DNA from: Bugula neritina
Taxonomy: Eukaryota > Animalia > Bryozoa
Length of the DNA: 64,000 nucleotides
Direction of reading: 5' to 3'
Assembly: GCA_964035545.1 (NCBI GenBank)
Contig: OZ037769.1
Location: 9,009,929 to 9,073,928 of the forward strand
Positions 33,590-57,806 of the stretch are shown here, in pieces; position 1 is the first letter of the stretch; each line of letters starts with the position of its first letter. The notes under the pieces were generated by a model, which saw nothing but the letters and a program-made list of their open reading frames with translations, ran no database searches and had not been told where the DNA came from. The translations under genes and the position numbers were made by a program.

Positions 33590-33605
33590 CTTGTGTATAA
33601 CAGTC

Positions 33606-34504
33606 ATGGCAGAAGACGGCGCGGAGCTACCCATTCCGCTGAATGAGGGTGAGGAAGATAATGTTGATATACCTGTGGAACCAGTAGTGTTAGAAGAAGT
33701 GAGAATTCCTAGAGAGCCTGGTGAAGGCAGATACCGGCTGAAGGCGCCCACCTTCACAGGTAGTTGCACGGTGGCCACCAAGGGTGGCGTTGCTCAAACT
33801 CAGGATGGCGCTGACGGACAAGGCTAAGCCATATGGAGCGGGACCTGACATAGACGGGATCTTTGCTTCTCTGTGGGCCCATTTTGGTATCTCCCCCATA
33901 GATGCGCGGGCCCGCCTACAAAGGCTGCGGCGTGATCCTCACACGTCGCTACAGGAGCACGCTGCCACGGTGTACCCGCTGGCGCAGATCACGTTCCGCG
34001 ATCTGCCTCAAGTACACCGTGAGAGGTATACTTATGATGCCTTCGTACAGTCCATCAACGACTTGGGGCTCCACCATCAGTTCCAAGCGAGGGGAGTCAC
34101 CACGGTCGAGGATGCACTTGCGGTGGGAGAAGCCTACCTCATGGCGACTCATATGCACCGCAATCGCGTGGTCTCCCGCCAGGTGGCCACGGAGCACACT
34201 ACTGCTCATACTGAACCAAATGGGGAACCCTCCGCGGTGGCTAATGTGAACCAGATGTCACTAGCATCGAAAGTCGCACAAATGACTGACATGCTAGATA
34301 AACTGGTCGCCACATTAGCTCCCCCAAGCCAGGTAGATACCGCCGTGAGCCTTGCAGGCCGCAGGTACAATCACCAGGCATGGGGCATAACTTCTGCTGG
34401 GGATGCGGAAGGCCAGGACATTTTCAAAAGAACTGCCCTCAACTCCAACAAGGGTTAAACTACCACGGCCCGCAGATGTTCCCACCTCCTGCGGGCCGCC
34501 GGTA
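33606..34504 (+). pseudogene. gag: Gypsy gag, frameshifted
   Basis: KAPTFTG start, capsid-like RLQRLRRDPHTSLQEHA and CCHC knuckle CWGCGRPGHFQKNC (34395-34436) lie in different frames. A G-TTA-AAC -1 slippery site at 34454-34460 leads into the pol frame. Confidence 0.75.
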
Positions 34505-36688
34505 AACCACCCAGGGAGGACCGCGAGTCTGCCGCCCCGCTGGGCGCCGCGCGGAGATGCTGTGAAGTGGCGACCCCCACGGCAAGTAGGCTACTCAAGC
34601 CACTCGCCACCTGGGTCCTCTATGCCACTCCAACACGGATCCGGCAGACGGTTGATCTCAGAGCCTGTGAGGGAAACGGTACAGGCGCCGCAAGGCGTAC
34701 CGCCCCAACCTCAGCAGCTGGTCAATAGTCGTCGCCAACCGTGGACCCCTCGACCCACAGCGAGGGAGGTGCAACCACGGCACACACAGCTGCAGCCGCA
34801 CGGAAGTAGCTACTTCCTGCCAGGAAAGCTAGCTGGCAAGCCTGCCAACTTCCTTCTGGACTCGGGCTGCACCACCAACCTCCTTAGCCGTCAATTCTTT
34901 GACACCCTCAGCGCTAAGGTCAAGGACGGGTTGGCACGGTATGAGGGGGATCATGGCACCCTGGCAGACGGGTCGTGCATTCCCTTCTACGGCATTATTG
35001 AGCTGACTGGTTACATCCGTAACCAGGCCATCCAAGAGACGTTTATCGTCGGACAGCTCAACGAGGATGCTATCCTCGGGATGCCATTCTTACAACGACA
35101 CGGATGTCGCATCGATTTCAGTAAATCTGCGATGATCATGGGCGATAGGGAGCTCACTTGTGTCGATAAGTTTGGTCGTCCTCTAGCGGGAGGAGTGCAG
35201 GTAGTACGGAGCTGTACGATACCAGGCCACTCCCGGGCTACCGTCCGCTGCAAAGTAGACGGTGGCCAAACCTCTAGGTTGGGAGTTGTCAAAAGCACGC
35301 ACTCAAGAATCCAACTTGCCCATAGCTTTAGCTGGCTTACGGGACAAGGAGAGATCTCAGTGCAGTGCGTCAACCCCTCCTCAGAGACGGTAGATCTACC
35401 ACCCAGGTCCATGCTGGGCCGCTTCCATCCTGTCCAGGAGGAAGCCATTGGGCTGTCGTTGGGAGCTACGACGGAAGGTCCTCAGCAGAGCCCGTCTCCA
35501 GGGCGGAGGACCGTCCCAACCCACGCCTCCCATATTCCAGGGACGCGTGGCGACACAGGCAACAGAAAGCGCCAGGTTATGGCTATGTTGCCACGCAGGT
35601 ACAGTGGAGCGCCCCGCAACACAGACCACGACGCCCGCCTGAATAGAGTAAGCCGTCGTGAGGTACCACGGGCGGCGGAGACCGCCCCTACTCATCAGCC
35701 CACGAGGAGGTTGGGCTCGAAGGAGAGGAGCAGAGTTCCCCCACGGAACTCGGGCCAACTCCAACAGAGGGCTGACACGCCCCCAAGGGCCGTCCAGAGC
35801 CTCCACGCCAAACCTGTATGGGCTGGTAACGTTAGGGAGCTGCCAAAACTCCAGGAAAGCCTTCCTGGGGTGGTAGCCGACGTGTACCGAGCGAAACAGG
35901 AAGGGCGACGACTCAGTGGTAGACAACGGCGACAGGGATGCGCCGAGCTACGGCTGTACTGTCAACGTTGGAACTCCCTGCGGGTCGGGCCAGATGGTCT
36001 GCTGACCATGACTTTGGCCGCCAACAGCAGACAACCAGCCAGGAAGAGGATCGTCTGCCCAGCTGCCATCCGCCGGGAGTTGATACAGGACACCCACGAG
36101 CAGACTCATGGAGGAATCCAGGGGGTGGTCACCAAGCTACAACTCCGGTGGTACTGGCCCAACGTGGAGCGGGACATCCGGCGCAGAGTGAGACGGTGCG
36201 AAGTCTTCCAGACCAACCAGCATAGCCGTCTCCCTGGTGAAGCGGGGCGGCAGACGCATTGTGCGAGAAGGTCTTGGCAAGCGGAGACTGTCGTCCTGGC
36301 CGGAAACACCCCCATGACACCTCAGGAAGACTTGGCGAGGCGAAAAAGGCCACTTCCGTCCTTGAAAGTGTGCCCACCGCCCCCAACGTCAAGCCTGCCA
36401 TCACCACCACTTCCGGAACCGAAAACGGGCCCGAAAGTGCAAAAACCCCCCGTGGGAGGGGCTCTGTACGGAGATACCAACGTAGGAACAACCGTCACAA
36501 ACAGGCTGGAAAAATCACCCGTGAGACATAACAATCCACGGGTGAGCACACCGCCTCCCACAGTGACGACGCCTCCAGGACCACACACTAGGCAACCCCC
36601 AGCGTGTCTCGGAGACTTCGTGCGTGACCGCGTTACAAGCGGCAGTTATGAAGGTCTAGTGAGGTCTCGCATGGGAAAAAATATATAA
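34403..36688 (+). CDS. pol: Truncated pol ORF: aspartic protease plus integrase H2C2 zinc-binding region
   Basis: LLDSGCTTN and AILGMPFL (retropepsin); HEQTHGG...WYWPNVERDIRRRVRRC (IN zinc finger, last Cys lost); no YxDD or DDE core. Confidence 0.8.
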   Translation: MRKARTFSKELPSTPTRVKLPRPADVPTSCGPPVNHPGRTASLPPRWAPRGDAVKWRPPRQVGYSSHSPPGSSMPLQHGSGRRLISEPVRETVQAPQGVPPQPQQLVNSRRQPWTPRPTAREVQPRHTQLQPHGSSYFLPGKLAGKPANFLLDSGCTTNLLSRQFFDTLSAKVKDGLARYEGDHGTLADGSCIPFYGIIELTGYIRNQAIQETFIVGQLNEDAILGMPFLQRHGCRIDFSKSAMIMGDRELTCVDKFGRPLAGGVQVVRSCTIPGHSRATVRCKVDGGQTSRLGVVKSTHSRIQLAHSFSWLTGQGEISVQCVNPSSETVDLPPRSMLGRFHPVQEEAIGLSLGATTEGPQQSPSPGRRTVPTHASHIPGTRGDTGNRKRQVMAMLPRRYSGAPRNTDHDARLNRVSRREVPRAAETAPTHQPTRRLGSKERSRVPPRNSGQLQQRADTPPRAVQSLHAKPVWAGNVRELPKLQESLPGVVADVYRAKQEGRRLSGRQRRQGCAELRLYCQRWNSLRVGPDGLLTMTLAANSRQPARKRIVCPAAIRRELIQDTHEQTHGGIQGVVTKLQLRWYWPNVERDIRRRVRRCEVFQTNQHSRLPGEAGRQTHCARRSWQAETVVLAGNTPMTPQEDLARRKRPLPSLKVCPPPPTSSLPSPPLPEPKTGPKVQKPPVGGALYGDTNVGTTVTNRLEKSPVRHNNPRVSTPPPTVTTPPGPHTRQPPACLGDFVRDRVTSGSYEGLVRSRMGKNI

Positions 36689-36909
36689 AAATATATATAT
36701 ATAAAAATATATATGTAAATATAAATATATATATATAAATATATATCATAATAATATATTATATATTATTATATTATATATGTATAACAATATTATATAT
36801 AATATATAATATATATATTTATATATAATAATAATCTATTATATATTATTATATTATAAATTTTATTATATATATATGTGTATATATATATGTGTATATA
36901 TATATATAA

Positions 36910-37742: not shown

Positions 37743-38381
37743 TGTTATAACGGGAACTTGTGGTATCCCGCTACAACTTACTGTACAGCTGTTACTAATA
37801 TGGCTAAGCCTTAGTGATTTACTATAACAGTATTATATGCATATACTTTATGGTAATTACCTTGTAGATTGTTGGTGACTCCTCTCGTTCCTGGTACGTC
37901 TACCTGAAGCTGGGTCTTACAGAGGAGTGACTTCAGATAGCTGTTGGGTGTAGCAAGATACTTCTTGCCGGTTAGCTCCACGTCAGCTGCTTCAGGATAG
38001 GTTGAAGTATTACAAGGGTGGCTGTAATACTTAGGTTTCCTGCCGGTTGGTCCACGTCAGCTGCTTCAGGATAGGCTACTGCGTTTACAAGGGTGGCTGC
38101 ATTTCCATATAAGGATAGAGCCAAGAAGCTGCAGGATCAGGGTGTTTGACGTATAGGAACTGACTTCAAAGCGAAAATGTAATTATAATTGTAACGAAAT
38201 TAGTACATGTTACAGACAGTAGGAAACAGATGGGCTATTGTGATGGCATTAGTTCTCTCTAATCCGTATAACAATGAAAAGTTAATATCAATGTGGGGTT
38301 TAGCTGGGCGTTAGGAAATGAGAATGTAGAATGACTCAGTGGGAAATGAATAAACCTAAAGTCCATAATTCCACTACAACA
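37743..38381 (-). repeat. 3' LTR of copy A
   Basis: Matches 44489-45127. Confidence 0.95.
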
Positions 38382-39593
38382 TTTCTCCCGACGAAAAAGA
38401 AAGCATAGCTCCTGCTATGTGTCTGTAGTACTTACAATGTAGTTCGAAATTATGATAAGGTTCTACTTACGAAATTGGGGTGTGGAGGTGAGTCAGTAAG
38501 TGATTCGTCTGAGTAAGTTGGTATTAATCAGAGCGTTCTACTTATTACTTACTAGGACTATTACTAACTAGGATGAGGAAATGGTATGAATGTTAAATTG
38601 CTCCGAATAGTTGTTGCGGCAGATATAATTATTATTAATAAAGTTCGAGTGGCTAGAATGCGGGGTTGTGTCATTGTGTGATTACCGGTAAGTTGGCGCG
38701 ATCCTCAACTATAACTCTACGTACAAGCCACGCTACTCTGTTGACACCACTTTAACTCAATATTTCCATAACCTCAGTTTTCGATATCAGTATGTCTTCC
38801 AGTACGGTAAGTTGGATAATACTAATTAATTCTACGTTTTTATCATTGTGTGGATTCAGTTAGTATATCTGTGATGTGAATATGTACGTAGCTTCAGTGG
38901 TAGTACTAGTAGTAGGCGTAGTATTTCGTTGTAATCAACTTCAAGTTTTTTAAGTTTTACTTCAAACCTATCAAATTAACTTCAGTAATTTAAAGTTCTT
39001 AGTCTAGATGTGACGATGTAACCCAAATTAAGTGTAATTTTCTCGTTCGATTTTTTGAGATATCATTCAAAAGTGATAAATTCAATAAAGTGATAAACTG
39101 TCAGTCCAGTGTCGTTTGACTATAGGTATTAGTTTAGAGTAAGACTAAAGTGTGTGTTTGCTGACCGAATTACCCACTTACAACAGTTATAGTGCTGCTA
39201 CTAGTTGTGGTGTCAATACTTATAGATACTATGTCAATATGTCTGGTCAGTAGTTGAGTAGTATTGGCATTATAAAATTTTAATGATAAGAGTAAAGTTG
39301 TACTTGGTAACAATAGTCATTGGACTTAATGGTGGGTGTTGTCAATTAGTAAACATGTTGCTATTGAATTGTCTAGCCGTTTTTGTAGTTACTTATACTG
39401 GCATAAATCCATCTTTATCTGGTTAATGTTAAAATAAGTAAATAATAATGAAAAAAAAATAATAATAAAAAAAACTTTCACTAGTAGGAGTACTAATTGT
39501 GGGTATTTCGGTCTCAGTGTTTTGTTTATGGTTATATATAATTGATCTAGTGGACCACTGGTATCCACTGCTAGCTGTTAAGCTGCTCACCCA

Positions 39594-40542
39594 ATGAAAA
39601 GAAAAGGGAATGGCTCCTGCCATTCGTTATTCTATTTATTCCTGAAGGGGTTAGTAAGCATTGGGGTGGATTTGTTAGTATCAGCAGACTGTTATATGTT
39701 AGTATCTAACTAGGGGGGGGGGGGGTTGATATGTGCATCCGCTAGGCTATCGCTTATAATGACTTGAATGGATCCTTGCCCTTCAGATCTGCCCAATGCA
39801 CTGCAACTGTTGGAGAGGCAGGGTGTTGGAGTGCTTTAGCAGTACCTCCACGCTTCACAGCACGGTGGCGGAGTTACAACAAACCACGACTGATCTACCC
39901 GTCACGTGGGGTTAGTAATTGGACTTATCGTCTAGCTCAAAGCAGTAGCAGTATAGGGTCGGTCATCGTAGCCATATCAATCCAATTGCCTTTCTGAGTA
40001 AGCATGCCTAGTTTATATGCCACTTTATGCTACAGGGTCTAATGTAACTGAACTCAATTTAACTGAGTTGTTCTCAGCTCAGGAGGACCAAGATGGGGTC
40101 CTCATAATAAGTATTATAGGGCTAGGCACGCTGTTGCTAATGGCAGTGCTCAGCATGTTTGCTTGTCGCTATGGCGCCCGTAGATACATAGAATATAGAA
40201 CCACCCCACAAAGCTAACATTACTAACGTCCCTATAATATACGTATAAATATATATATTTTTGTTTTTGTTTTTTTTTTTTCATTTACTTCATTTTCATT
40301 CACTACTTATATGTATATATTATATGTAAATATGTTTTTGTCATTGTATATCTATATACCAGTTAATAATATGTTAATAATAAATCTAACTACCATTTAG
40401 CTCACATAATCATGTGTTTGTTTTATATTCTCTTTTAGGATACACTGGCCTAGTGGCCGGAATAGTATTAGGGGCCTTGGCCCTAGCCTTAATAGTTTAT
40501 ATATTCTGCTGTTGTAGGCCCGCTTGCAGGGCGAGAGACTGA
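39594..40542 (+). CDS. Antisense spliced small membrane-protein gene in copy A: exons 39594-39653, 39787-39910, then 40036-40217 or 40439-40542
   Basis: GT-AG junctions are in phase: MKRKGNGSCHSLFYLFLKGL|ICPMHCNCWRGRVLECFSST...VTW|GSNVTELNLT...TM...PQS* or |GYTGLVAGIVLGALALALIVYIFCCCRP... Differences from copy B are mainly synonymous. Confidence 0.6.
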
Positions 40543-40852
40543 GTAGTTAGTTTTGTGTTCGTTTTTCTTTTTCTTTTAATAAAGGTAAAATAGTGTAAAT
40601 CTAATCAGCTACCAATTGTATTCGTTTATTTCAATTTGCACTAGTCTTGTTAATGTAATCAACTTGTAAATAGAGGCTGTAGAGTGCGATTAGGATTAGA
40701 GTTGAGCCTTACTAAAACGATGGAATACTAGATAATCAAAATATAGTAGTAAATATGATATGCACTTTAAAAAAAAACAAGCCCAACTCGAACAGTCCGT
40801 CACGTTGAGTGTTTAGTCTTTTATCATGCAACGGTATTATGGTAAGTCTAGT

Positions 40853-43387
40853 CTATAGTCTGTAAGTGAATTGCGCCTCCCTCTTTTGCTTTGGTCTGCG
40901 CCTTAGACCGTATCGTTTATTGTTGCGAGTTGGTGGTGGTGGTGGCTTTATTCTTTCAGCTTCCTCAGTATTGTTATTCTGAGGCTCTTGGATACTAGTT
41001 CCTTCTCGGTTACCATTACTATGTGCAATGTCTGTGTCGGTTCCATTATGGTGTGCATGTTCATCATTATGTGCCTCAATTCCTGTTGTAGGTTGACGGT
41101 CAGTCTCTTGGCAGTCAGTTTCTCGGCAGTCTTCTTCACTAGACGGTCTGTCAGAGTGAAAATTGTCCGATTCTGGAGCTGAAGTTTCAACCTCCTCAGA
41201 ACCTGAGTCTTGGGCCGCAGGTGAGTCTAGCTCAATTGATAGTTCAGATGTGGGTCCTCTAACTATGCTGCACTGATTCTTCGAGAAGAATTGCTTCTTG
41301 CAGCAGTGCTTGTACACTGCTTCAACCTTGTTGTGTGTAGTGAAGACACCATTTCCACCCTTAAGCTCACCCGCGTCACAGTGTTTAGAGGTAACCATGT
41401 CGATGCACTCTCCCCGCGTGATATGCCGGTTCTCTATGTGAGCATTACGGACTTTCACATTGGTGAAGAGAGACATTAACGTGGTGACCACCGACTTGAA
41501 CTTCTTGCATTGGTATGCTGGTGACTCCCATTCTATTGTGTTGGGTTTGTATACCATGATTTTTGTCTGTTGGGGCTGTCGCGAGGGGTCAGTCTTGTCA
41601 TGTCCGGGGCAGGTGTAGTTAGTGTTCAGTCGGAACAAGTGGGGTTGGTCAGTATGGTGTGAGCCGCATACCATGGGGTTTTTTGCTTCTACCGGGGTCG
41701 CTCCACAGCCAAGGAAACAGCTTAGCAAGCATAGCATTGCTAGTTGTACCGCATCCATGACTGAGAGTTTTCTGCCACCTCTTCTACTTTTGGCCTTCGG
41801 TCCTTTTGCCTTGGGAGTTAGTTCTACGGCGTTGACGTGTTCCTGGCCTGGATCTTGATTTAGGAACTGGAATGCAAACTCGTCAGGACCGAGGTCGCTG
41901 ACGACGTTTACATTAGAGCATTTGCTCCCATAATGCCGGTTCCCGCAAGACTTGCAGGGCCAAGGATTTTGTCCACGCCCATTGCCGTAGTTCTGACCTG
42001 TGTGATTGTTATTGTGTCTGTGTGAAGATTGGTGGTTGTATGACCCTCTTTGTTGGTTAAAAGGGGTTTGGTGTTGGTTAAAAGGAGCCTGATGTTGGTT
42101 GTGGGTGCCTTGGTTATAGTAGCGCTGTGGTTGATTGTAACCACCTCTTCTGTTGCCTCGGTTACCACCGCGTCCTCTACCACGGTATCGGTTGGACTGG
42201 TAGTTATTGCTCCTGTAACTTTTCTCCTCTTGCTCCTTGGATCTTATTGACTGAGCTTTTATAAGCTCAGCCAGACCGTCTATCTGCTTTTGCAGAGGAG
42301 CTATGAGTTCTGCTTGGCTCCGGTTATAATTAATTTCCGCGACTATTTCTGACTCTATGAAATTTATTTTTTGAGTCTTGAGTGCCCCATCTACCGCTTC
42401 CAGCTTCTTTGCTTCCTCCAAGGTCTGCTGCAGGGTGAGTTCACCCTTCAGAAGGATATCCCTCTGATGGGCTTCGTTCAGCCCTGCAATGAATACGTTC
42501 GTCAACACCTTGTCTCTATATTCCTCCGGCATATCCAGGAATGCCGACTGGCCTTGAGAGACTACTTCTGTGAAGAATTCTCCAACAGTTTTCTTCCCCT
42601 GTGACAGTTTCCAGAGGCTCTTCCCTAGCAGTGGGTTGCTTCTCTGGAACATTGTAGCCAGTTTGGGTTTAAGTGCAGTGTAGCTGGTGGCACAGCCGGG
42701 CGCCTGTTTCACTACCTTTCGGTACGTTTGCCAAGCTGAGCCAGTGAGCTTGGCAGGTATAGCGAGGGCTAGTTGTTCGTTGTCATATCGATGGGGGGCC
42801 ATTAGAACTTCCCATCTCTCTATAAAATTCTCCCAGGACTCAGTAGAGTCACCGGAGAAGGATGGCAGGCTATCCAAGTTGGGTGCCACACTTGCTATGA
42901 TCTGCGTTTGGAATGGATTGGCGGTTGGTATGTTGGTAGAGGGTATGCCGCGTGGAGGTCGTGTTTGGGTTGAATAAGTTTGTAGTGTTGGGGTCATATG
43001 AGCTTGAGTTGACAAGCCATAGTTTGTCATTGTAAGGCTGGGTGTAGGGCCTGTTGAAGTGTTGCTGTTGATACAGTCACGTCGTAGCTCTGGAGATAAT
43101 GAGTTCCAAAACTTCACTATCTCTTCCTTCGAGGTGGGTGTGTAAATTGTGTTTTTGGGTCTTGTGCCCGTATCGCTCGATGTCGTGGTCGAGCTGGTTA
43201 TAGTGGTTGTCGCGGTTAGTGGAGTGTCAGTATTGTCAGATAGTGTAGTAGGGGTTGAGGTGGTTATGGGAGGTTGTGTGGTAGTGTCGGAGCTCAATGT
43301 GGTAGGGGCAGACGAGGTTGCTTCTCCTGGGGTAGCCATTTGTCTAGTTCTAGTTACACTCCGTGTCACCCGCCTGTTACTACTCAT
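40853..43387 (-). CDS. gag: Intact 844-aa Gag - signal - partial Env fused in frame to the C-terminal tail of Pol
   Basis: Capsid-like LPSFSGDSTESWENFIERW and LSQGKKTVGEFF, knuckle CKSCGNRHYGSKC, hydrophobic AVQLAMLCLLSCFLGCGA, Cys-rich Env N-terminus, then GPTSELS matching the end of copy B pol. Confidence 0.9.
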   Translation of the reverse strand: MSSNRRVTRSVTRTRQMATPGEATSSAPTTLSSDTTTQPPITTSTPTTLSDNTDTPLTATTTITSSTTTSSDTGTRPKNTIYTPTSKEEIVKFWNSLSPELRRDCINSNTSTGPTPSLTMTNYGLSTQAHMTPTLQTYSTQTRPPRGIPSTNIPTANPFQTQIIASVAPNLDSLPSFSGDSTESWENFIERWEVLMAPHRYDNEQLALAIPAKLTGSAWQTYRKVVKQAPGCATSYTALKPKLATMFQRSNPLLGKSLWKLSQGKKTVGEFFTEVVSQGQSAFLDMPEEYRDKVLTNVFIAGLNEAHQRDILLKGELTLQQTLEEAKKLEAVDGALKTQKINFIESEIVAEINYNRSQAELIAPLQKQIDGLAELIKAQSIRSKEQEEKSYRSNNYQSNRYRGRGRGGNRGNRRGGYNQPQRYYNQGTHNQHQAPFNQHQTPFNQQRGSYNHQSSHRHNNNHTGQNYGNGRGQNPWPCKSCGNRHYGSKCSNVNVVSDLGPDEFAFQFLNQDPGQEHVNAVELTPKAKGPKAKSRRGGRKLSVMDAVQLAMLCLLSCFLGCGATPVEAKNPMVCGSHHTDQPHLFRLNTNYTCPGHDKTDPSRQPQQTKIMVYKPNTIEWESPAYQCKKFKSVVTTLMSLFTNVKVRNAHIENRHITRGECIDMVTSKHCDAGELKGGNGVFTTHNKVEAVYKHCCKKQFFSKNQCSIVRGPTSELSIELDSPAAQDSGSEEVETSAPESDNFHSDRPSSEEDCRETDCQETDRQPTTGIEAHNDEHAHHNGTDTDIAHSNGNREGTSIQEPQNNNTEEAERIKPPPPPTRNNKRYGLRRRPKQKREAQFTYRL

Positions 43388-44488
43388 ACAATGTGTGTGT
43401 TTGTTTATTATTGGCTTATTTTGTTTTCTGTAAATTATTAGGGCAGGTATATTTAGTTAGTTTGTTTTCTAATCACCGTTTTAATTAGTACTGTATTTAG
43501 TTATTTGTGTTTAATAATAAGTTGGAACAGTGGAACAGTAGAAGGATGTAAATAGTACCACTATGACTATCCTTTTGGTAGTTTGTAACTACCTTGTGAA
43601 TGTGGAAATTAGGTTAATTATGTCGGTTCTTGTTTCCTTTCTTAATTAGGCAATTATTCTTAAATTAGATTAGATATAAGATAAATCTCCTGTTTTTTAT
43701 TTTTTATGAAATTAATTATTACAATTTGAACGTTAGGTATATGGTTGTAGCAGCTATCGAAGTTTCTTGATACTTATTTCTAGTTGGATAATTCAGTTTA
43801 GGTTTTATAACTTAGCTTATATATCTAAGGTTGTAAATTATTATACTTGAACTTAATTTTTAAATTAGCGGTACCTCCTATCTAGATATTGGACGTGTGT
43901 TAGCCTTGGGGTAGTTCTATATTGTGTTTATAAACTTACCCTGACTGGTTACGTTGTGGGTTGGGGTTAGCACTCACCAGTCTCCGTGGGGTGCGATTGT
44001 TCCCTTGACGAGTTTGTGATGATTTATAATTAATTGTTTAAAGATACTGATTTCTGTAACAGCAAAAGTAGTGTTAATAACACAGCAACAAGTAATATTG
44101 AAGCTTATAAAAAGGGAGTTGAGTCTTGGAATTCAAAATTGACAGTACTTAATATATATTGTTTGGTATTAGATACCGGGACTCTAGGTCAACCACTAAA
44201 ATTTTTAATTGTATTTCTATAGCGCTTGTTTGAGTGTATTGCTTTAATTTATGTGTCGTGGGACCAGTACTGTATTTGATATGTTCAATTATTAATTAGG
44301 CCTATTATAGACTCTAAACTCTACCTTTAGTTAAAAATAGCTTGTCCTCAAGCTTGTGTGAGCCCCTGATACAATAGCTCGGCAGTAATAGCTACCTAAG
44401 CCAAGTATAACTGAGTGGTTAATCTCAGTGATCAGCAAATAAATGCTTTGCAATACGAGAGGGGGACCGAAATGGTACCTCCACCAAA

Positions 44489-45127
44489 TGTTATAACGCG
44501 AACTTGTGGTATCCCGCTACAACTTACTGTACAGCTGTTACTAATATGGCTAAGCCTTAGTGATTTACTATAACAGTATTATATGCATATACTTTATGGT
44601 AATTACCTTGTAGATTGTTGGTGACTCCTCTCGTTCCTGGTACGTCTACCTGAAGCTGGGTCTTACAGAGGAGTGACTTCAGATAGCTGTTGGGTGTAGC
44701 AAGATACTTCTTGCCGGTTAGCTCCACGTCAGCTGCTTCAGGATAGGTTGAAGTATTACAAGGGTGGCTGTAATACTTAGGTTTCCTGCCGGTTGGTCCA
44801 CGTCAGCTGCTTCAGGATAGGCTACTGCGTTTACAAGGGTGGCTGCATTTCCATATAAGGATAGAGCCAAGAAGCTGCAGGATCAGGGTGTTTGACGTAT
44901 AGGAACTGACTTCAAAGCGAAAATGTAATTATAATTGTAACGAAATTAGTACATGTTACAGACAGTAGGAAACAGATGGGCTATTGTGATGGCATTAGTT
45001 CTCTCTAATCCGTATAACAATGAAAAGTTAATATCAATGTGGGGTTTAGCTGGGCGTTAGGAAATGAGAATGTAGAATGACTCAGTGGGAAATGAATAAA
45101 CCTAAAGTCCATAATTCCACTACAACA
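44489..45127 (-). repeat. 5' LTR of copy A
   Basis: Followed on the minus strand by the PBS TGGTGGAGGTACC. Confidence 0.95.
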
Positions 45128-45516: not shown

Positions 45517-46147
45517 TGTTGTAGTGGAATTATGGACTTTAGACTTGTTTAATTCTCATTCTACATTCTCATTTCCTAACGCCCAGCTACACTCCACATT
45601 AAGATTAACTTTCCATTGTTATACAGATTAGAGAGAATTAATGTCATCACACTAGCCAAGCTGTCTCCTACTGTCTGTAACATGTACTAATTTCGTTACA
45701 ATTATAATTACATTTTCGCTTTGAAGTCAGTTCCTATACGTCAAACACCCTGATCCTGCAGCTTCGTGGCTTTATCCTTATATGGAGATGCAGCCACCCT
45801 TGTAAAGGCAGTAACCTATCCTGAGATAGCTGACGTGGACCAACCGGCAGGAAGCCTAAGTATTACAGCCACTCTTGTAATACTGCAACCTATCCTGAAG
45901 CAGCTGACGTGGAGCTAACCGGCAAGAAGTATCTTGCTATACCCAACAGCTATCTGAAGTCACTTCTCTGTAAGACCCAGCTTCAGGTAGACGTACCAGG
46001 AACGAGAGGAGTCATCAACAATCTACAATGTAATTACCATAAAGTATATGCATATAATACTGTTATAGTAAATCACTAAGGCTTAGCCATATTAGTAACA
46101 GCTGTACAGTAAGTTGTAGCGGGATACCACAAGTTCCCGTTATAACA
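45517..46147 (+). repeat. 5' LTR of copy B
   Basis: TGTTGTAG...TTATAACA. Confidence 0.95.
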
Positions 46148-46149
46148 TT

Positions 46150-46162
46150 TGGTGGAGGTACC
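46150..46162 (+). promoter_or_regulatory. Primer-binding site, tRNA-Ala-like
   Basis: TGGTGGAGGTACC, 2 nt after the LTR; resembles the complement of the tRNA-Ala 3' end (..CUCCACCA). Confidence 0.6.
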
Positions 46163-47224
46163 ATTTCGGTCTCCCCTCTCGTATTGCAAAGCATTTATTT
46201 GCTGATCACTGAGGTTAACCACTCAGTTATACTTGGCTTAGGTAACTATTACTGCCGAGCTATTGTATCAGGGGCTCACACAAGCTTGAGGACAAGCTAT
46301 TTTTTTAACTAAAGGTGGAGTTTAGAGTCCATAATAGGCCTAAATAATAATTGAACATATCAAATACAGTACTGGTCCCACGACACATAAATTAAGGCAA
46401 TACACTTGAATAAGCGCTATAGAAATACAATTAAAAATTCTAGTGGTTGACCTGGAGTCCCGGTATCTAATACCAAACAATATATATTAAGTACTGTCAA
46501 TTTTGAATTCCAAGACTCAACTCCCTTTCTATAAGCTTCAATATTACTTGTTGCTGTGTTATTAACACTACTTTTGCTGTTACAGAAATCAGTACCTTTA
46601 AACAATTAATTATAAATCATCACAAACTCGGCAAAGGGAACAATCGCACCCCACGGAGACTGGTGAGTGCTAACCTCAACCCACAACATAACCAGTCAGG
46701 GTAAGTTTATAAACACAATATAGAACTACCCCAAGGCTAACATACGTCCAATATCTAGATAGGAGGTACCATTAATTTAAAAATTAAGTTCAAGTATAAT
46801 AACTATAATAATTTACAACCTCAGATATATAAGCTAAGTTATAAAACCTAAACTGAATTATCCAGTTAGAAATAAATATTGAGAAACTTTAATAGCCGCT
46901 GCAACCATATACCTAACATCCAAATTGTAATAATTAATTTCATAAAAAATAAAAACAGGAGATTTATCTTATATTTATTTTAATTAAAGAATAATTGCCT
47001 AATTAAGAAAGGAAACAAGAACCAACATAATTAATCTAATTTCCACATTCACAAGGTAGTTACAAACTACCAAAAAGATAGTCATAGTGGTATAATTTAC
47101 ATCCTTCTACTGAAACAGAAGGCTCACTCTGTTCCAACTTATTATTAAACTAACTGAGTACACCTGCCATAATAATTTATAAAAAACAAAATAAGCCAAT
47201 AATAAACAAACACACACACATTGT

Positions 47225-48934
47225 ATGAGTAGTAACAGGCGAGTGACACGGAGCGTAACTAGACAAATGGCTACCTCAGGAGAAGCAACCTCATCTGCCC
47301 CTACCGCATTGAGCTCCTCTTCCGACATTACCACACAACCTCCCATAACCACCTCAACTTCAACTACACTACCTGACTATACTGACACCCCACTAACCGC
47401 GACAACCACTATAACCAACTCGACCACGACATCAAGCGATACGGGCACAAGACCCTAAAACACAATATACACACCCACCTCGAAGGAAGAGATAGTGAAG
47501 TTCTGGAACTCACTATCTCCAGAGCTACGACGGGACTGTATAAACAGCAATAGTCCAACAGGCCCTACACCCAGCCTTACGATGACCAACTATGGCTTGT
47601 CAACTCAAGCTCATATAACCCCAACACTACAAGCTTATTCAACCCAACCACGACCTCCACGCGGCATACCCTCTACCAACATAGGCCTACCAACCGCCAA
47701 TCCGTTCCAAACGCAGATAATGGCAAGCGTGGCACCCAACTTGGATAGCCTGCCATCCTTCTCCGGCGACTCTACTGAGTCCTGGGAGAATTTTATAGAG
47801 AGATGGGAAGTCCTGATGGCTCCCCATCGATATGACAACGAACAACTAGCTCTCGTCATACCTGCCAAGCTCACTGGCTCAGCTTGGCAAACGTACCGAA
47901 AGGTAGTGAAACAGGCGCCCGGCTGTGCCACCAGCTACACTGCACTTAAACCCAAACTGGCTACGATGTTCCAGAGAAGCAACCCACTGCTAGGGAAGAG
48001 CCTCTGGAAACTGTCACAGGGGAAGAAAACTGTTGGATAATTCTTCACAGAAGTAGTCTCTCAAGGCCAGTCGGCATTCCTGGATATGCCGGAGGAATAT
48101 AGAGACAAGGTGTTGACGAACGTATTCATTGCAGGGCTGAACGAAGCCCATCAGAGGGATATCCTTCTGAAGGGTGAACTCACCCTGCAGCAGACCTTGG
48201 AGGAAGCAAAGAAGCTGAAAGCGGTAGATGGGGCACTCAAGACTCAAAAAATAAATTTCATAGAGTCAGAAATAGTCGCGGAAATTAATTACACCCGGAG
48301 CCAAGCAGAACTCATAGCTCCTCTGCAAAAGCAGATAGACGGTCTGGCTGAGCTTATAAAAGCTCAGTCAATAAGATCCAAGGAGCAAGATGAGAAAAGT
48401 TATCGGAGCAATAACTACCAGCCCAACCGATACCGTGGTAGAGGACGCGGTGGTAACCAAGGCAACAGAAGAGGTGGTTACAACCAACCACAGCGCTACT
48501 ATAACCAAGGCACCCACAACCAACATCAGGCCCCTTTTAACCAACACCAAGCCCCTTTTAACCAACAAAGAGGGTCATATAACCACCAATCTTCGCACAG
48601 ACACAATAACAATCGCACAGGTCAGAACTACAGCAATGGGCGTGGACAAAATCCTTGGCCCTGCAAGTCTTGCGGGAACCGGCATTATGGGAGCAAATGC
48701 TCTAATGTAAACGTCGTCAGCGACCTCGGTCCTGAAGAGTTTGCATTCCAGTTCCTAAATCAAGATCCAGGCCAGGAACACGTCAATGCCGTAGAACTAA
48801 CTCCCAAAGCAAAAGGACCGAAAGCCAAAAGTAGAAGAGGTGGCAAAAAACTCTCAGTCATGGATGCAGTACAACTGGCAATGCTATGCTTGCTAAGCTG
48901 TTTCCTTGGCTGTGGAGCGACCCCGGTAGAAGCT
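47225..48934 (+). pseudogene. gag: gag of copy B plus internal signal peptide
   Basis: Colinear with the copy A ORF, but with nonsense changes AAA>TAA (47456) and GAA>TAA (48038). Confidence 0.9.
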
Positions 48935-50864
48935 AAAAACCCCATGGTATGCGGCTCACACCATACTGACCAACCCCACTTGTTCCGACTGAACACTAAC
49001 TACACCTGCCCCGGACATGACAAGACTGACCCCACGCGACAGCCCCAACAGACAAAAATCATGGTATACAAACCCAACACAATAGAATGGGAGTCACCAG
49101 CATACCAATGCAAGAAGTTCAAATCGGTAGTCACCACGTTAGTGTCTCTTCACCGACGTGAAAGTCCGTAATGCTCACATAGAGAACCGGCCTATCACGC
49201 GGGGAGAGTGCATCGACATGGTTGCCTCTAAACACTGTGACGCGGGTGAGCTTAAGGGCGGAGATGGTGTCTTCACTACGCGCAACAAGGTTGAAGCAGT
49301 GTACAAGCACTGCTGCAAGAAGCAATTCTTCTCGAAGAATCAGTGCAGCATAGTTAGAGCGACCGTGTACAAAAGGCATGAGGATAAGGAATTCGAGTCC
49401 ACTGCAGGTGACGTTCGTCATTGCAAATATGACGAAGGAAGCTGCAAATTGGACGACGGTTCCATCCTCATATGGGAACCACGGAAGCAGACCCACTGCA
49501 AACATACGGAGTGGTACATGGAGGAAGGCACCTTCTTCGACAACCACTTCGTCAGTAGTGACCACTCGATGGCCTTGACGTTCGCCCGATATGGAATCTA
49601 CTCGACGAAGGACTGCCACGGCAAGAACACGTCGATGTCGGACCAAGGGCTGATGTTAAGGTTCATGACGCCACTCCACAATGTTACCATACTTAACAAC
49701 GTCACAGCCACATATCAAGTTGGAGGCTCATATGCGTCTACAATAAACGCAGTAGCGCAAGCTCTAGCGTTAGAACAAATCACCACCGCACAAAAACTAT
49801 TCTGGACCTCATACTACTATTCGTGTCACAACACTGCCCAAACCATTAACCTCATCACTCTCTTACTTGAACGACATCCCACAACAGCAGCAAGACACAT
49901 GTTGCAATTGAGTAACGTGGTCGCGAAAGCCGGCCCTGGCTACTTAGAGGTGTACCCCTGCACCGAGTTGGAAAGAACTTCTTACCAACTACTGAAAATG
50001 AAACACAACAACTGCACCAACTACTTGCCGATACAAATATCTATAGCTGGTCTTGAATCCATTGGATATCTGGACCCTGTAAATAACATAATACACCCTG
50101 ACTCATACAATGTAGACTGCACCCACAGAGAGGAAGTTCCTGTGAAATTGGACGGTATTATTTACCTATATTCATGGAACGAATCTCTAAAACTGGCCCC
50201 AAACACTACAATTCTATCCTTGCCAAACATCAAATTAGGAGCTACTCCCTTGGAATCACACGAAAATATCTTCAGTCGCGCACATAGACTAAATTGGGCT
50301 GATTTTAGCCATCACCACTCCTTAAATGCTATCCTTTCAACACTCAACCGCCAAACACAGGTGTTGAAAGCCGTTGGAGTTGTTAGCTTTCCACACTATA
50401 CACTAGACAAAAATAGAATAGAGACCCAAGAAGGCATACTGGGTAATTCATATTTCTCCTTCTTGTTCGGAGGTCATGTAGCCTCAGTATATGAATTGTG
50501 GACCATGCTAGCAAATCTCATCGTGGCGATTGCTTCAATCGTCTTTATTTCCAAGAAATTATACTATCATCTATGCATCAAATACATCTGCAAAAGGCGT
50601 GGCAGAATCGTAGTAGATGCTGTGGACATTGTAGAACAAAGTACAACACACCAACCAACAGCAGAGGAAACTACGACAGCCACGGAATTACATTCTTTAA
50701 TAACCCCCACTCATTCCCAAGTAGAAAGTACAACCCCCATTTCTACTATTAACTCAAACACCCCATCAGCAAGGTTATACCCTGCGCTTGAGAATATAAC
50801 CGAAACAGATGACATCGCTTGGCCTTCTTGGACCAAGCAAGCCAGGCAAGAGTCTTCACAATGA
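48935..50864 (+). CDS. env: Envelope glycoprotein, class III (gB/chuvirus-G-like) candidate; 2-nt deletion near 49150 in this copy
   Basis: Cys-rich ectodomain (AYQC, ECIDMV..KHC, GDVRHCKYDEGSCKLDDGSILIWEP, YPC, NCTNYLP), several N-x-S/T sequons, TM LWTMLANLIVAIASIVFI, and an S/T-rich cytoplasmic tail. Confidence 0.8.
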
Positions 50865-53800
50865 CTAGCCACGCCGTCGCCGAAAACCGCTGCCCAAGTA
50901 TTGGGAATTCTGGATAGTCGCACCTGTCAGACAACAACAATAAGGGCAGAGGTAAACGGCAAGAGGTGTACCGCGTTAGCAGACGCTGGCGCATCCATAA
51001 GTATTGTGAACTCAAATATCGCTGCCAACTTAGGGTTGGCACTACAACCACACAAGATTAAGGCAAGGGGTGTTACCAACAGCTCCTTAGACATTCTCGG
51101 GAAATCGGACGTAGTGATTACAATAGGAAAAGACACAAGAGTAGAACATTCACTCTTTGTGGCCAATGCAATTACTCACGACGTCATTTTAGGGTCTGAT
51201 TTTCTAGCAAAACTGGGAGAAGTCACCTACGATTTCCAGAGGTGCACATTGGGTTTCAATCAACGGAAGATACCCATGGGACCGGAAGCCATAAACAACG
51301 TAGCACGGACGGCATATAGCGTGGACATACCGCCTCTGTCAGAGATGGCAGTGGTGGCCACCATCACAAGTCCATCCTTGGACGGTGCCACCTGCTATTT
51401 TGAAGGCAACAAATTACCACAAAAGGTAATGGTAGGAAAATCAATTGACAGGGTAGTCAAGAGACGCATTTGGGTGCCAATAATGAATTGCACTAAGACT
51501 CCCATAACTATTCCAGAAGACACGATCGTGGGTAACGTGGAACAGGTGGAAGAAAATCTGGAACTACTCAAGGTCAACTCCCCAAAAGAAAAATCGAAGA
51601 CTCTATCCAAACCTAGCTCAAGTCTGAAACTGGAGGACACCACATTGGATCTACACCAGTTTCAGAAGCTACGAGGGCTGGTGGACGAGTTTCAAGATAT
51701 CATTTGAGAAGGAGTCACTGACCTTGGACGTACTGATATAGTACAGCCCGTGGTGGAAACAACCCCCAGTACGCACCCGATACGAAGCCGACCATACGTC
51801 ATTCCAGTAGGTATTAGGTCGGAAGTAAAAGCACAACTGGATGAAATGCAAGAAGCCGGGCTGATCACACCCAGCGCTGGCAATTGGACCTCACCAGTTG
51901 TGTTGGTCAAGAAGAAAGATGGGAGGTGGAGATTCTGCGTAGATTACCGGAAACTGAACTCCGTGACGATTAAGCAGTCTATGGCAATATCGAGCATAGA
52001 GAACGCTGTTGAAATCATGCACAACAAGAAGTACTTCAGCAGCATCGATCTATGTTCCGGTTTCTTCCAAGTAGCACTGCACGAGTCGTCTCAGGAGAAA
52101 TCAGGGTTCATAACGCCATTCGGCTGTTATGAATTTAAGGTAATGCCACAAGGAATGTCGGGCTCACCTGCGACTTTCACTCGCCTCGCATTAGCCATCA
52201 TGGCCGACCTGATAAGTGAGGGCAGCAGTTGCGTCTACCTAGACGACTGGCTGATGACATCAACCACGTTTGAGACCCATTTGCAACTACTCAGGACAGT
52301 GTTTTCCAGGCTCCGTTACGCTGGACTAAAGTTCAGACTGAGTAAAAGCCAGCTATGTCAGAAGGAGATCCTATACCTGGGACACATATTGTCGAGCAAA
52401 GGTATAGCAGTTGCACCTCACAATACCGAAAAGATCAAAAATTTCCCCACTCCGCGGAACAAAACGGAAGTCAAGAGACTTCTTGGTCTTTTCGGGTATT
52501 ACAGGTCATTCATAAAAAACTTCGCGCGGATCGCGACTCCTATTATTAAACTCACGTTCAAGGACGCCGAGTTTGTCTGGTCGGTAGAATGTCAGAGGGC
52601 TTCGGAAGAGCTGAGAACCAGAATCACCACAGCACCAATTCTGGTTTTTCCTGACATTAAAAGCCCATTTATCTTAACGACTGGTGCATCGGCAACTGCG
52701 ATTGGGGCTGTCCTGTCTCAGCTCCGAGACAATAAGGAACACCCCATATCGTTCTACTCTCGTACGCTAACAGCCGCCGAGAGGAAATGGGACGCCTGCC
52801 AGCAGGAGCTCTTCGCTATAGTGTGCGCTGTCAAACACTACAGGCAGTATCTGATGAATGTCAAATTCAGATTGATCACAGATAACGCTGCCTGTACGTA
52901 CATGATGAAGAAACCAGACTTGTCTCCCCGCCTTGCCAGATGGGCAATACAACTGGCCGACTATGACTTTGAGGTCATACACCAGGCGGGCAAACAGAAC
53001 GTGGTGGCCGACGCTCTGTCACGAGCAGAGATTCTTGCTGTAGAATCCTGCCCTATCGACGAACAGGCAAGAAATCAGCAGAAGAGAGACTACTTCTTAG
53101 GGCCAGTACTTCTGTACCTGGAGAAGGGGAAGTTTCCGGAAGACGCCTCCAAGGCGAAAGCGAATCAGATAGTTGCGGACAGCAAACAATTCAAGATAAT
53201 TGACGGGCTCGTGTACCGTAACTATCAAGACAAAGCACTTCTGGCTATCCCCTCAAGTCAGCGTCACCTCCTGATGTACGCTATGCATGACAGCATATCG
53301 GCTATGCATCCAGGAATGACTAAGACTATGCTCCGGTTGAAACAACACTACTGGTTCCCGAAGATGCACCAGGCAGTCGAAAAATATATCTCAGAATGCC
53401 ACTCATGTCAGCAGAGGAAGAACCCGAAAGTTCAGACTCGGGTCCCTCTGGCAACAAGGATAGCGACAGAGCCATTCCACACGCTATCCATGGACTTCCT
53501 CGGTCCGTTCGTGCAGAGTGCTGATGGAATGAAATACGTTCTGGTATTTACCGACCATTTTACAAAATGGTGCGAAATGATCTGCACTGCTGACCAATCA
53601 GCAGCAACAGTCGCTCGCGTCTATGTTGAGCAGATCTTTTGCAAATTCGGGGCCGCATCAGTACTACTCTCGGACAGGGCCAAGTCTTTCATGGGTTCAG
53701 TTATGGTTGAAGTGAACAAACTTCTCAAAACTGACTCCAAATTTAGTGTACCGTACTCGCCAGCATCCAACGGACAAGTGGAGATATACAACAAAACCAT

Positions 53801-54728
53801 CGCCAATATGTTGTCCCACTTCGTCGACCCAGGCACCCATCGCGATTGGGACAGATACATCCCGTTCTGTCAACTGGCGCACAATTCATCAGTACACACC
53901 ACCACCACCACGACACCAAGTATGCTCTTATTCTGCAGAGAAATGCGAATGCCATACGAGCTGACCAAACCTCGCCCACCTGTTGTGGAAGACGACGTCC
54001 CGTACGTTACGAAGTTGCTCAACAGAATGCAAGAGGTTTGGGACACAGCCAGACAGTTGATAGGAAAGGGCAAAGAAAGGCAGAAGAGATACGACAAGAA
54101 AGCACACCCCACAGATCTCAGAGTGGGAGATATAGTGTTGTACTATAATAAAAGGGCGTACAAAAACAAGACTGCTAAATTAATAAAGCGATGGCAGGGC
54201 ATGTACATAATAAAACATATAACCGATACAACTGCTGCCATACAACTATTCAACGAGCCAGATCAGGCACCATTTAGGGTGCATTTGAACCTAATGAAAA
54301 GGTACAAGGGACCTCTAGTTAGAGGACCCACATCTGAACTATCAATTGAGCTAGAGTCACCTGCGACCCAAGGCTCAGGTTCTGAGGAGGTTGAAACTTC
54401 AGCTCCAGAAACGGACAATTTTTACTCTGACAGACTGTCTAGTGAAGAAGACTGCCGAGAAACTGACTGCCAAGAGACTGACTGTCAACCTACAACAGAA
54501 ATTGAGGCACATAATGATGAACATGCACGCCATAATGAAACCGACACAGACATTGTATATAGTAATGATAACCAAGAAGGAACTAGTATCCAAGAGCCTC
54601 AGAACAACAATACTGAGGAAGCTGAAAGAATAAAGCCACCACCACCACCAACTCGCAACAATAAACGATACGGTCTAAGGCGCAGACCAAAGCAAAAGAG
54701 GGAGGCGCAATTCACTTACAGACTATAG
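50865..54728 (+). CDS. pol: Pol (PR-RT-RNase H-IN), in frame with env; one internal TGA at 51705-51707
   Basis: ALADAGAS/VILGSDFL (PR); WRFCVDYRKLN, MPQG, YLDD (RT); TGAS..ELFA..TDN (RH, first Asp is Gly); H-H-CHSC, SMDFLGP, LSDRA, GQVE (IN). Ty3/Gypsy domain order. Confidence 0.95.
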
Positions 54729-55029
54729 ACTAGACTTACCATAATACCGTTGCATGATAAAAGACTGAACACTCACTGTGACGGACTATTCTAGTTAGGC
54801 TTGCTTTTTTTTAAAGTATATATCATATTTACTACTATATTTTGATTATCTAGTATTTCATCGATTTAGTAAGGCTCAACTCTAATCCTAATTGCACTCT
54901 ACAGCCTCTATTTACCAGTTGATCACATTAGCAAGACTAGTTCAACTTGAAATAAACGAATACAATTGGTGGCTGATTAGATTTACACTATTTTACCTTT
55001 ATTTAAAAAAAAAAAAACACAAAACAAAC

Positions 55030-55970
55030 AAACTACTGAGTTGTCTCTCGCCCTACGAGCGGGCCTACAACAGCAAAATATATAAGCTAATAAGGCTAGG
55101 GCCAAGGCCCCTAATACTATCCCAGCCACTAGGCCAGTGTATCCTAAAAAAAAATAAAAAACAAACACATGATTATGTGAGCTAAGTGGTAGTTAGATTT
55201 ATTGTTAACATATTATTAGCTGGTGTATAGATATACAATGACAAAAACATATTTACATATAATATATACATATAAGTAGTGAATAAAAATAAAGTAAATG
55301 AAAAAAATATATATATATATATACATATATTATAAGGACGTTAGTAATGTTAGCTTTGTGGGGTGGTTCTATATTCTATATATCGACGAGCGCCATAGCG
55401 ACAAGCAAACATGCTGAGCACTGCCATTAGCAACAGCGCGCCTAGCCCTATAATACTTATTATGAGGACCCTATCTTGGTCCTCCTGAGCTGAGAACAAC
55501 TCAGTTAAATTGAGTTCAGTAACGTTAGACCCTGTAGCATAAAGTGGCATATAAACTAGGCATGCTTACTCAGAAAGGCAATTTGATTGATATGGCTACG
55601 ATGACCGACCCTATACTGCTACTGCTTTGAGCTAGACGATAAGTCCAATTACTAACCCCACGTGACGGGTAGATCGGTTGTAGTTTCTTGTAATTCCACA
55701 GCCGTACTGTGAAGCGTGGAGGTACTACTAAAGCACTCCAACACCCTCCCTCTCCAACAGTTGCAGTGCATTGGGCAGATCTGAAGGGCAAGGATCCATT
55801 CAAGTCATTATAAGCAATAGCCTAGTGAATGCATATATCAACCCCCCCCCCTAGTTAGTTACTAACATATAACAGTCTGCTGATACTAACAAATCTACCC
55901 CAATGCTTACTAACCCCTTGATGAGTAAATAGAATAACGAATGGCAGGAGCCATTCCCTTTTCTTTTCAT
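55030..55970 (-). CDS. Antisense spliced small membrane-protein gene in copy B: exons 55970-55911, 55780-55657, then 55531-55350 or about 55143-55030
   Basis: Same exon lengths (60, 124 and 182 nt) and splice sites as in copy A. Confidence 0.6.
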
Positions 55971-57169
55971 TGGGTGAACAGCTTAACAGCTAGCAGTGGG
56001 TACCAGTGGTCCATTAGATCAATTATATATAACCATAAACAAAACACTGAGACCAAAATACCTACAATTAGCACTCCTACTAGTTAACGTTTTTTTATTT
56101 TTTCACTATTATTTACTTATTTCAACACTAACCAGATAAAGATAGATCTATGCGTGTATAAGTAACTACAAAAACGGCTAGACAATTCATTAGCAACACG
56201 TTTACCAATTGACAACAGCCATCATTAAGTCCAATGATTATTATTACCAAGTACAACTTTACTCTTATCATTAAAATTCTATAACGCCAATACTACTCAA
56301 CCAGACATATTGACATAGTATCTATTAGTATTGACACAACTACTACTAGTAGCAGCACTATAACTGTTGTAAGTGGGTAATTCGGTCAGCAAACACACAC
56401 TTTAGTCTTACTTTAAACTAATACCTATAGTCACACGATACTGTACTGACAGTTAGTGAGTTTATCACTTTATTGAATTTATCACTTTTGAATGATATCT
56501 CAAAAATCGAACGAGAAATTACACTTAATTTGGGTTATATCGTCACATCTAGACTAAGAACTTTAAATTACTGAAGTTAATTCGATAAGTTTGAAGTAAA
56601 ACTTGAAGTCGATCACAACGAAATACTACGCCTACTACTACTATACTACTACAACTACTACTGAAGCTACGTACATATTCACATCACAGATATACCAACT
56701 GAACCCACACAATGATAAAAACGTAGAATTAATTAGTATTATCCAACTTACCGTACTGGAAGACATACTGATACGGAAAACTGAGGTTTATGGAAATATT
56801 GAGTTAAAGTTGTGTCAACAGAGTAGCGTGGCTTGTATGTAGAGTTATAGTAGAGGATCGCGCCAACTTACCGGTAATCACACAACCTCGCATTCTAGCC
56901 ACTCGAACTTTATTAATATTAATTAGATCTGCCGCAACAAATATTCGGAGCAATTTAACATTCATACCATTTCCTCATCCTAGTTAGTAATAGTCCTAGT
57001 AAGTAATAAGTAGAACGCTCTGATTAATACCAACTCACTCAGACGAATCACTTACTGACTCACCTCCATACCCCAATTCCGTAAGTAGAACCTTATCATA
57101 ATCTCGACCTACGTTATAAGTACTTCAGACACATAGCAGGAGCTATGCCTTCTTTTTCGTCGGGAGAAA

Positions 57170-57806
57170 TGTTGTAGTGGAATTATGGACTTTAGGTTTA
57201 TTCAATTCCACTGAGTCATTCTACATTCTCATTTCCTAACGCCCAGCTAAACCCCACATTGATATTAACTTTCCATTGTTATACGGATTAGAGAGAACTA
57301 ATGCCATCACAAAGCCCATCTGTTTCCTACTGTCTGTAACATGTACTAATTTCGTTACAATTGTAATTACATTTTCGCTTTGAAGTCAGTTCCTTTACGT
57401 CAAACACCCTGATCCTGCAGCTTCGTGGCTCTATCCTTATATAGAAATGCAGCCACCCTTGTAAATGCAGTAGCCTATCCTGAAGCAACTGACGTGGACC
57501 AACCGGCAGGAAACCTAAGTATTACAGCCACCCTTGTAATACTTCAACCTATCCTGAAGCAGCTGGCGTGGAGCTAACCGGCAAGAAGTATCTTGCTACA
57601 CCCAACAGCTATCTGATTTCACTTCTCTGTAAGACCCAGCTTCAGGTAGACGTACCCGGAACGAGAGGAGTCATCAACAATCTACAAGGTAATTACCATA
57701 AAGTATATGCATATAATACTGTTATAGTAAATCACTAAGGCTTAGCCATATTAGTAACAGCTGTACAGTAAGTTGTAGCGGGATACCACAAGTTCCCGTT
57801 ATAACA
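57170..57806 (+). repeat. 3' LTR of copy B
   Basis: Preceded by GGGAGAAA; TG...CA ends. Confidence 0.95.

Follow-up and report, generated by a model that had tools for sequence, protein, structure and literature searches.

The 64,000-nt stretch analysed here (Bugula neritina, contig OZ037769.1, positions 9,009,929 to 9,073,928 of the forward strand; hereafter "the window") contains a 12.3 kb Ty3/gypsy element with the gene order gag-env-pol and a glycoprotein B (gB)-like Env, which is bounded by two long terminal repeats (LTRs) and surrounded by AT-rich sequence with many repeats. A reading frame shared by Env and Pol, a single stop between them, a conserved context of this stop, and intact domains on both sides are directly established. 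Judged from these sequence features, Pol is very probably made by programmed readthrough of the conserved UGA behind the Env tail.

Organization of the element

The features of the element, all on the + strand, are as follows:

45517..46147, +, 5' LTR with TG...CA ends (93% identity to the 3' LTR in self-BLAST)
directly after the 5' LTR, +, TGG primer-binding-site-like stretch (sequence ends inspected)
47459..48859, +, gag region of the Gag-Env frame (weak Retrotrans_gag match, E 0.009)
48860..48934, +, hydrophobic segment that separates Gag from the Env ectodomain, a predicted signal/anchor (hydropathy scan of the relatives P0001, P0010, P0013, and P0014)
48935..50492, +, Env ectodomain, predicted class III fusogen fold resembling gB and nyamivirus G (model of the relative P0001)
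50493..50560, +, predicted Env transmembrane helix (P0001 model and hydropathy)
50775..50789, +, LYPAL in the Env tail, resembling a YPxL late domain (motif scan of tails)
50859..50867, +, conserved stop cassette CAA TGA CTA (comparison of copies and families)
50865..51704, +, aspartic protease and linker (Pfam gag-asp_proteas, E 1.7e-9)
50879..50960, +, predicted long stem-loop, a possible stimulator (begins 14 nt past the stop; z -3.2)
51708..54728, +, reverse transcriptase (RT), RNase H, and integrase (Pfam; same frame, behind a private stop at 51705)
57170..57806, +, 3' LTR with TG...CA ends (self-BLAST)

The order of domains along the frames (gag, env, protease, RT, RNase H, integrase), established from open reading frames (ORFs) and Pfam matches, and the two direct LTRs with TG...CA ends place the element in Ty3/gypsy (Metaviridae). 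The best match of Pol in the PDB is the Gag-Pol of Ty3 (E 3e-102; 7q5b, 4ol8), a nearness judged among solved structures. The gag region contains an internal stop at 48038, and its true start lies further upstream, judged from a sister copy. Together with the internal stop at 51705 and a frame break near 49143, in the Env ectodomain, this shows the copy to be decayed.

No target-site duplication is evident in the flanks of 45517 and 57806 (by eye, the sister copy has one of 4 bp), the LTRs of the copy differ by 7%, and its 3' LTR is 97% identical to the LTRs of the sister copy; it may be old or a recombinant. Two non-coding stretches, one of about 2.4 kb ahead of the 3' LTR (54729-57169) and a leader of about 1 kb or more (46148-47150), are 93-95% alike in the sister copy and lack any ORF of 100 codons. 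The window also contains a second copy of the same element (37743-45127, - strand), whose LTRs are 99.8% identical. An internal deletion that starts early in env and runs through the last codons of pol has left it with one 867-codon frame, and the Env/Pol junction is absent.

A conserved stop codon between Env and protease

The 573-codon Env frame stops at a TGA (50862-50864) within CAA TGA CTA GCC (50859-50870), and a 280-codon protease frame opens in the same phase at 50865. A reading made from the letters of the window without database searches (the sequence-only reading) had described this Env end, the directly continuing protease frame, and the lack of an ATG ahead of the catalytic Asp, all of which is borne out. 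From the stop to the catalytic Asp (codon 40, 50982), all frames lack an ATG, and the first in-frame Met of the protease frame is codon 138. The sequence-only reading was also right in that the other lesions of the copy lie in a different context: neither of the internal stops nor the frame break is accompanied by CAA-TGA-CTA, and intact relatives are open at these places.

Sister copies were recovered as contigs from four runs, aligned to 50790-50960. They comprise 24 pieces; the 13 that span the stop (six of them well inside their ends) have up to 19 differing letters in 171. No variant letter is listed at 50859-50867 among these pieces, and 21 other places vary. Runs X2 and X6 contain nearly identical variants and are possibly not independent. 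One variant lacks 12 nt ahead of the stop but keeps the frame, which may explain why the Env relatives P0001 and P0004 end four residues earlier, still in Gln.

A contig from run X1 shows a joint from 50857 to 54722, which removes pol entirely, from just ahead of the stop to the end of pol. With its Gag-Env frame and in-frame stop, it is a candidate for a non-autonomous derivative that encodes only Gag-Env.

The same junction occurs in distantly related elements. A scan of metagenomes with the Env alignment yielded ten loci (L001-L010), which form four families by junction sequence (L001/L002, L003, L004-L007, and L008-L010), with the window as a fifth. CAA TGA C(T/A)A is located at the Env/protease border in all ten loci; identity between the families is 42-62% for Env and 36-82% for the protease region. 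When the five families are aligned at the stop, eight of the nine columns from -3 to +6 are invariant, as opposed to 2 of 84 flanking columns. The Gag-Env frame is closed by a single TGA and followed in phase by the Pol frame in nine loci; L010 has a frame break inside Env and an unchanged junction. The TGA is the sole internal stop in the near-complete relatives L002 (2,431 codons), L003 (2,486), L004 (2,029), and L009 (2,471). In L001-L003 and L007-L009, Gag and Env share a frame of 1,138-1,405 codons; the match to Retrotrans_gag exceeds its cut-off in L001 and L009 and is weaker in L003 and L007. The ordinary stops that close Pol are TAG or TAA and have no common context. Scans of viral_contigs with the Env and Pol alignments, and of genome_contigs with Env, revealed no relative.

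It is almost certainly wrong to regard the TGA as an accidental nonsense mutation that interrupts a continuous frame in a decayed copy. Although the copy is broken elsewhere, and distant relatives have an uninterrupted frame over this border, the same stop in the same context is present in sister copies and in all ten loci, which are open at the other stops of the copy. A sense codon at this place in other copies would have pointed to a private mutation, but none was found; a private mutation is thus refuted by the conservation in sister copies and five families. The retention of the TGA in sister copies and 10 of 10 distant loci lends support to the proposal of the sequence-only reading that the stop is of the readthrough type.

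The protease active site ALADAGA (50973-50993), with an Asp-Ala-Gly core, is found in the window, L002, L003, L004, and L009. The motif, which includes the catalytic Asp at 50982, is invariant in the five families. The usual form of this active site is Asp-Thr/Ser-Gly, and continuous relatives mostly have DSG or DTG.

Nucleotide context and alternative routes to Pol

Both contexts found behind the stop resemble those of viral readthrough sites. UGA-CUA, the type II context in the available part of PMC3159437, is present in the window, its sister copies, and L001-L003. The type I context described there, a stop followed by CAR-YYA, is absent from the window (CTA GCC) but occurs in L004-L007 (UGA-CAA-UCA) and L008-L010 (UGA-CAA-CCA). 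The same source reports AA at positions -2/-1 as a stimulator of readthrough. Of the motif TGA-CTAG that had been singled out from the window alone, CAA-TGA-C(T/A)A has stood the comparison; the final G has not, since position +7 (50868) is A in several sister pieces and T or C in the other families. That the stop was kept in frame across a switch between two known motifs finds little explanation other than selection for leaky termination, as far as sequence comparison can tell.

The variable +7 position also bears on splicing, by which gag or the leader would be joined to an acceptor past the stop, skipping env as in foamy viruses and leaving the TGA as the ordinary stop of Env. By such a route, Pol would not have to be made behind a membrane protein, and every family has an AG within 15 nt past the stop, including the acceptor-like CTAG of the window. 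However, several sister copies carry A in place of the G of CTAG, and the first AG lies in phase 1, 2, 0, 1, and 1 in the five families, differing between L001 and L003 despite a protease region that is 82% identical. No joint from gag to the junction is found among the joints listed, for which contigs are a weak test. Splicing also leaves unexplained why CAA, TGA, the C at +4, the A at +6, and the shared frame have been kept, and is very unlikely to be the source of Pol.

Alternatively, Pol might start anew, either by stop-restart at the AUG in CA-AUG-A or by means of an internal promoter and initiation at a non-AUG codon. The invariant CAATGA indeed holds an AUG that overlaps the stop, which recalls the stop-restart sites of some RNA viruses, and a weak promoter has been described at the gag-pol junction of Tca2 (available text of PMC2194720). 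However, the overlapping AUG is in the -1 frame, not in that of Pol, and the frames it opens are all short, closing 11 to 173 nt past the stop; stop-restart at this codon was rejected on these grounds. No family has an in-frame AUG ahead of the protease domain: four of the five lack an in-frame Met ahead of the catalytic Asp, and that of L004-L007, six codons ahead of the Asp, comes too late because the Pfam domain starts at codon 25. A new start, which would also leave C(T/A)A unexplained, is therefore very unlikely.

The occurrence of UGA in all five families would also be compatible with another form of recoding, be it A-to-I editing to a Trp codon, insertion of selenocysteine, or a host code in which UGA is a sense codon. 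Intact relatives, however, contain TGG 25-36 times and TGA once, so that UGA is not a general sense codon, and a host code of this kind was rejected. The site lies in a variable linker instead of a catalytic position. An A>G change at 50864 is not listed in run X10, whose identity as RNA is a guess, and the G on the 5' side is a poor neighbour for editing. Taken together, recoding by any of these means is extremely unlikely.

RNA structure behind the stop

A small hairpin that had been pointed out behind the stop in the window (CCCAA-GTA-TTGGG) is present at 50893-50905 but does not exceed the chance level. Its pair probability is 0.0 in the fold of 50865-50964, hairpins of 5 bp occur about once per 100 nt of the coding part (73 in total), and both arms vary among sister pieces (50894, 50903).

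A longer stem-loop is predicted at 50879-50960, whose score was obtained by comparing positions +4 to +103 with 60 shuffles. L004 has a similar stem-loop (z -2.7), and in L001 a signal appears only over 200 nt (z -2.9). Among the nine paired places that vary in sister copies, one pair has changed on both sides and stays paired and four keep pairing alone, whereas three break outright and one breaks unless its partner also changes; partner changes close to contig ends may go unlisted. The fold predictions suggest a 3' stem-loop as a possible stimulator that is not general across the families.

The Env protein ahead of the stop

A kinship with the gB-type errantiviruses is indicated by an env located between gag and pol and a predicted class III fold that is flanked by a signal/transmembrane segment and a second transmembrane segment. 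P0001, an intact natural relative with 91% identity to this Env, was modelled with moderate confidence (mean predicted local distance difference test score, pLDDT, 60.6). The model matches gB of cytomegalovirus (Foldseek E 3e-19) and, among nyamivirus and rhabdo-like glycoproteins, the G protein of Midway nyavirus (E 2e-26). Pfam Monjiviricetes_fusion was detected in L009 (E 8e-10); a Pfam search with the window's own Env fragment gave no informative match.

All eight glycosylation sequons of P0001 sit between the signal segment and the transmembrane segment. Two membrane segments with all sequons between them suggest that Gag and the Env tail are cytoplasmic and that Pol would be attached to this tail. 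The motif [LIV]YPxL is found in 18 of 22 Env tails and PPxY in 6 of 22, at a distance of 2-38 residues from the end. [quoted passage not shown]

Origin of the stop in the Env tree

A profile search among 1.84 billion representatives gave 928 proteins at E up to 0.001, of which the best 150 were examined. The tree (FastTree, one gene, midpoint root) comprises those 62 of 162 Env-matching sequences that cover the transmembrane region (100 were dropped); its outer branches are weakly supported. The Env of the window falls into a clade of 22 members (support 0.976), none of which is fused to a protease among the matches listed. Nineteen of them, including one short piece, end in Gln, which corresponds to 18 of 21 full-length proteins, or 15 of 18 if the four near-identical members of the window's family are counted once. 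A relative with 50% identity in Env clusters with proteins annotated in Bugula neritina.

By contrast, all five proteins of the sister clade (support 0.991) are continuous from Env into the protease, which begins 23-32 residues past the same LYPxL-like motif. Among the remaining 35 proteins of the tree, 18 are also continuous by the motif test. Because the 22-member clade is unfused and the sister clade is continuous throughout, the ancestor was probably continuous and the stop gained only once, a scenario to be read in the light of gene-caller products, a midpoint root, and a single gene.

A model for the expression of Pol

According to the proposed mechanism, most ribosomes would terminate at the UGA and set free Gag-Env, whereas a minority would incorporate a residue and read on to Gag-Env-Pol. 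The UGA would be decoded by a near-cognate tRNA, with help from CAA on its upstream side and CUA or CAA-YCA on its downstream side, and in some families perhaps from the 3' stem-loop. The enzymes would thereby be kept scarce relative to capsid and envelope, as they are at gag-pol borders. The growing chain should span the membrane twice, first with the signal segment and then with the Env anchor, as predicted from hydropathy.

To our knowledge, Pol is carried on Gag in retroviruses and other known LTR elements. Here, Pol might be carried on Env rather than Gag, provided that signal peptidase cuts Gag from Env. Attached to the cytoplasmic tail of Env and adjoining the ESCRT-type motif, it might then enter the budding particle. 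We tentatively propose, with slightly more doubt than confidence, that this lineage turned a continuous Gag-Env-Pol into a readthrough-regulated one, switched between two classic motifs, and came to carry Pol on the tail of Env instead of Gag.

Several observations weigh against programmed readthrough at this stop. The decayed copy in the window cannot make the full product itself, and His, Asn, or Arg is the last residue in three of the 21 full-length proteins of the clade. The other proteins show only the residue before a predicted end, which may be the end of a contig. DNA evidence comes from five families, and the ten loci have similar contig names and perhaps share one host, which means that the breadth is one across element families and not across hosts. 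In the folding test, L003 and L008 gave no 3' structure signal, and windows elsewhere reach comparable z-scores. The material from all runs consists of contigs. Finally, the UGA of gag in Tca2, with 300 nt around it, gave no readthrough in a yeast reporter (available text of PMC2194720), so that an in-frame UGA is no guarantee of simple leakiness.

Comparison with known systems

The gene order, recently described, and readthrough at gag-pol borders are known; what appears to be new is the probable placement of a known recoding device behind Env. GAG-ENV-POL errantiviruses of the HSV/gB type have been described from Bryozoa, Nematoda, and Platyhelminthes by Chary and Hayashi (eLife, PMC13524379). 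In the parts of this article covered, they share with the present element a Ty3/gypsy Pol, a gB-type Env between gag and pol, and LTRs; by eye, the Env ectodomains of Cryptosula errantivirus_4, _5, and _6 are collinear with this Env and have many motifs in common with it. The main text contains none of the terms readthrough, read-through, frameshift, fused, single ORF, or splic-, and the expression of Pol is not addressed in the parts covered. Judged from their listings, literature searches turned up no description of readthrough at a stop that separates env from pol, a result that leaves room for a mention in subscription papers, Repbase notes, or further supplements of the eLife article. The word "retrotransposon" is absent from a 2026 review of readthrough in animal viruses (PMC13517186).

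Close parallels are the fission-yeast elements Tj1 and Tosmo, whose gag and pol are separated by GAA-TGA-CT; Tj1 reportedly cannot transpose without the stop (bioRxiv 10.1101/2022.12.06.519325, in the part available). As in the present families, a conserved xAA-TGA-CT stands directly ahead of the protease in Tj1, Tosmo1-3, and Tcry1 and is read there as programmed readthrough; a single-ORF ancestor has likewise been proposed for them. These elements, however, lack an Env and have the stop behind Gag, whereas here the stop lies behind an Env with a predicted membrane anchor, and two of the families have CAA-YCA.

Readthrough ahead of pol is also known from Moloney murine leukemia virus (MLV) and Tca2, and the soybean copia element SIRE1 reads from pol into env (available text of PMC2194720). 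According to the same text, how much downstream product is made relative to the structural one is determined in MLV and SIRE1 by the in-frame stop, a role that would apply here by inference. MLV differs by having a UAG and a pseudoknot after gag and by making Env separately. In SIRE1, Env is the readthrough product, whereas here Env lies upstream and Pol would be that product. The window and L001-L003 share UGA-CUA with the nsP3/nsP4 border of alphaviruses, and L004-L010 have a tobamovirus-like type I 3' context. These viruses, however, have another kind of genome, type I sites normally have UAG, and the stem-loop of type II sites, which are defined by UGA-CUA/CGG and a 3' structure, is only partly supported here. 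NERV, the nematode endogenous retroviruses, reportedly consists of one continuous ORF without a stop, unlike the present gag-env-pro-pol frame, which is split by a conserved stop. The order gag-env-pro-pol itself is shared with NERV (Sacco et al. 2022), as cited in the literature available, and NERV likewise has an RNA-virus-like glycoprotein.

The stop in this lineage adds a probable case of programmed readthrough among animal retroelements, and its location, after a membrane protein, is new. It offers a possible answer to the question of how gag-env-pol elements avoid making one set of enzymes per subunit of capsid and envelope, and the sister clade with a continuous frame provides a natural comparison for the clade with one conserved leaky stop. 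The presence of both UGA-CUA and CAR-YYA in one lineage makes the equivalence of the two contexts testable. Elements of this kind are split by gene callers, and copies that bear the stop should not be scored as dead.

Other features of the window

A GC-rich region upstream of the element (33500-36700, + strand) contains ORFs that resemble gag, a protease (LLDSG), and an integrase zinc finger, but an RT is not evident. Judged by eye, it appears to be another, degenerate LTR element. An inverted duplication (77-1858, 3071-3640, and 6242-7987) carries paralogous acidic ORFs of 190-240 codons, with a third, diverged copy between them. A 305-codon ORF on the - strand (16249-17166) contains repeats that, by eye, resemble an NHL beta-propeller.

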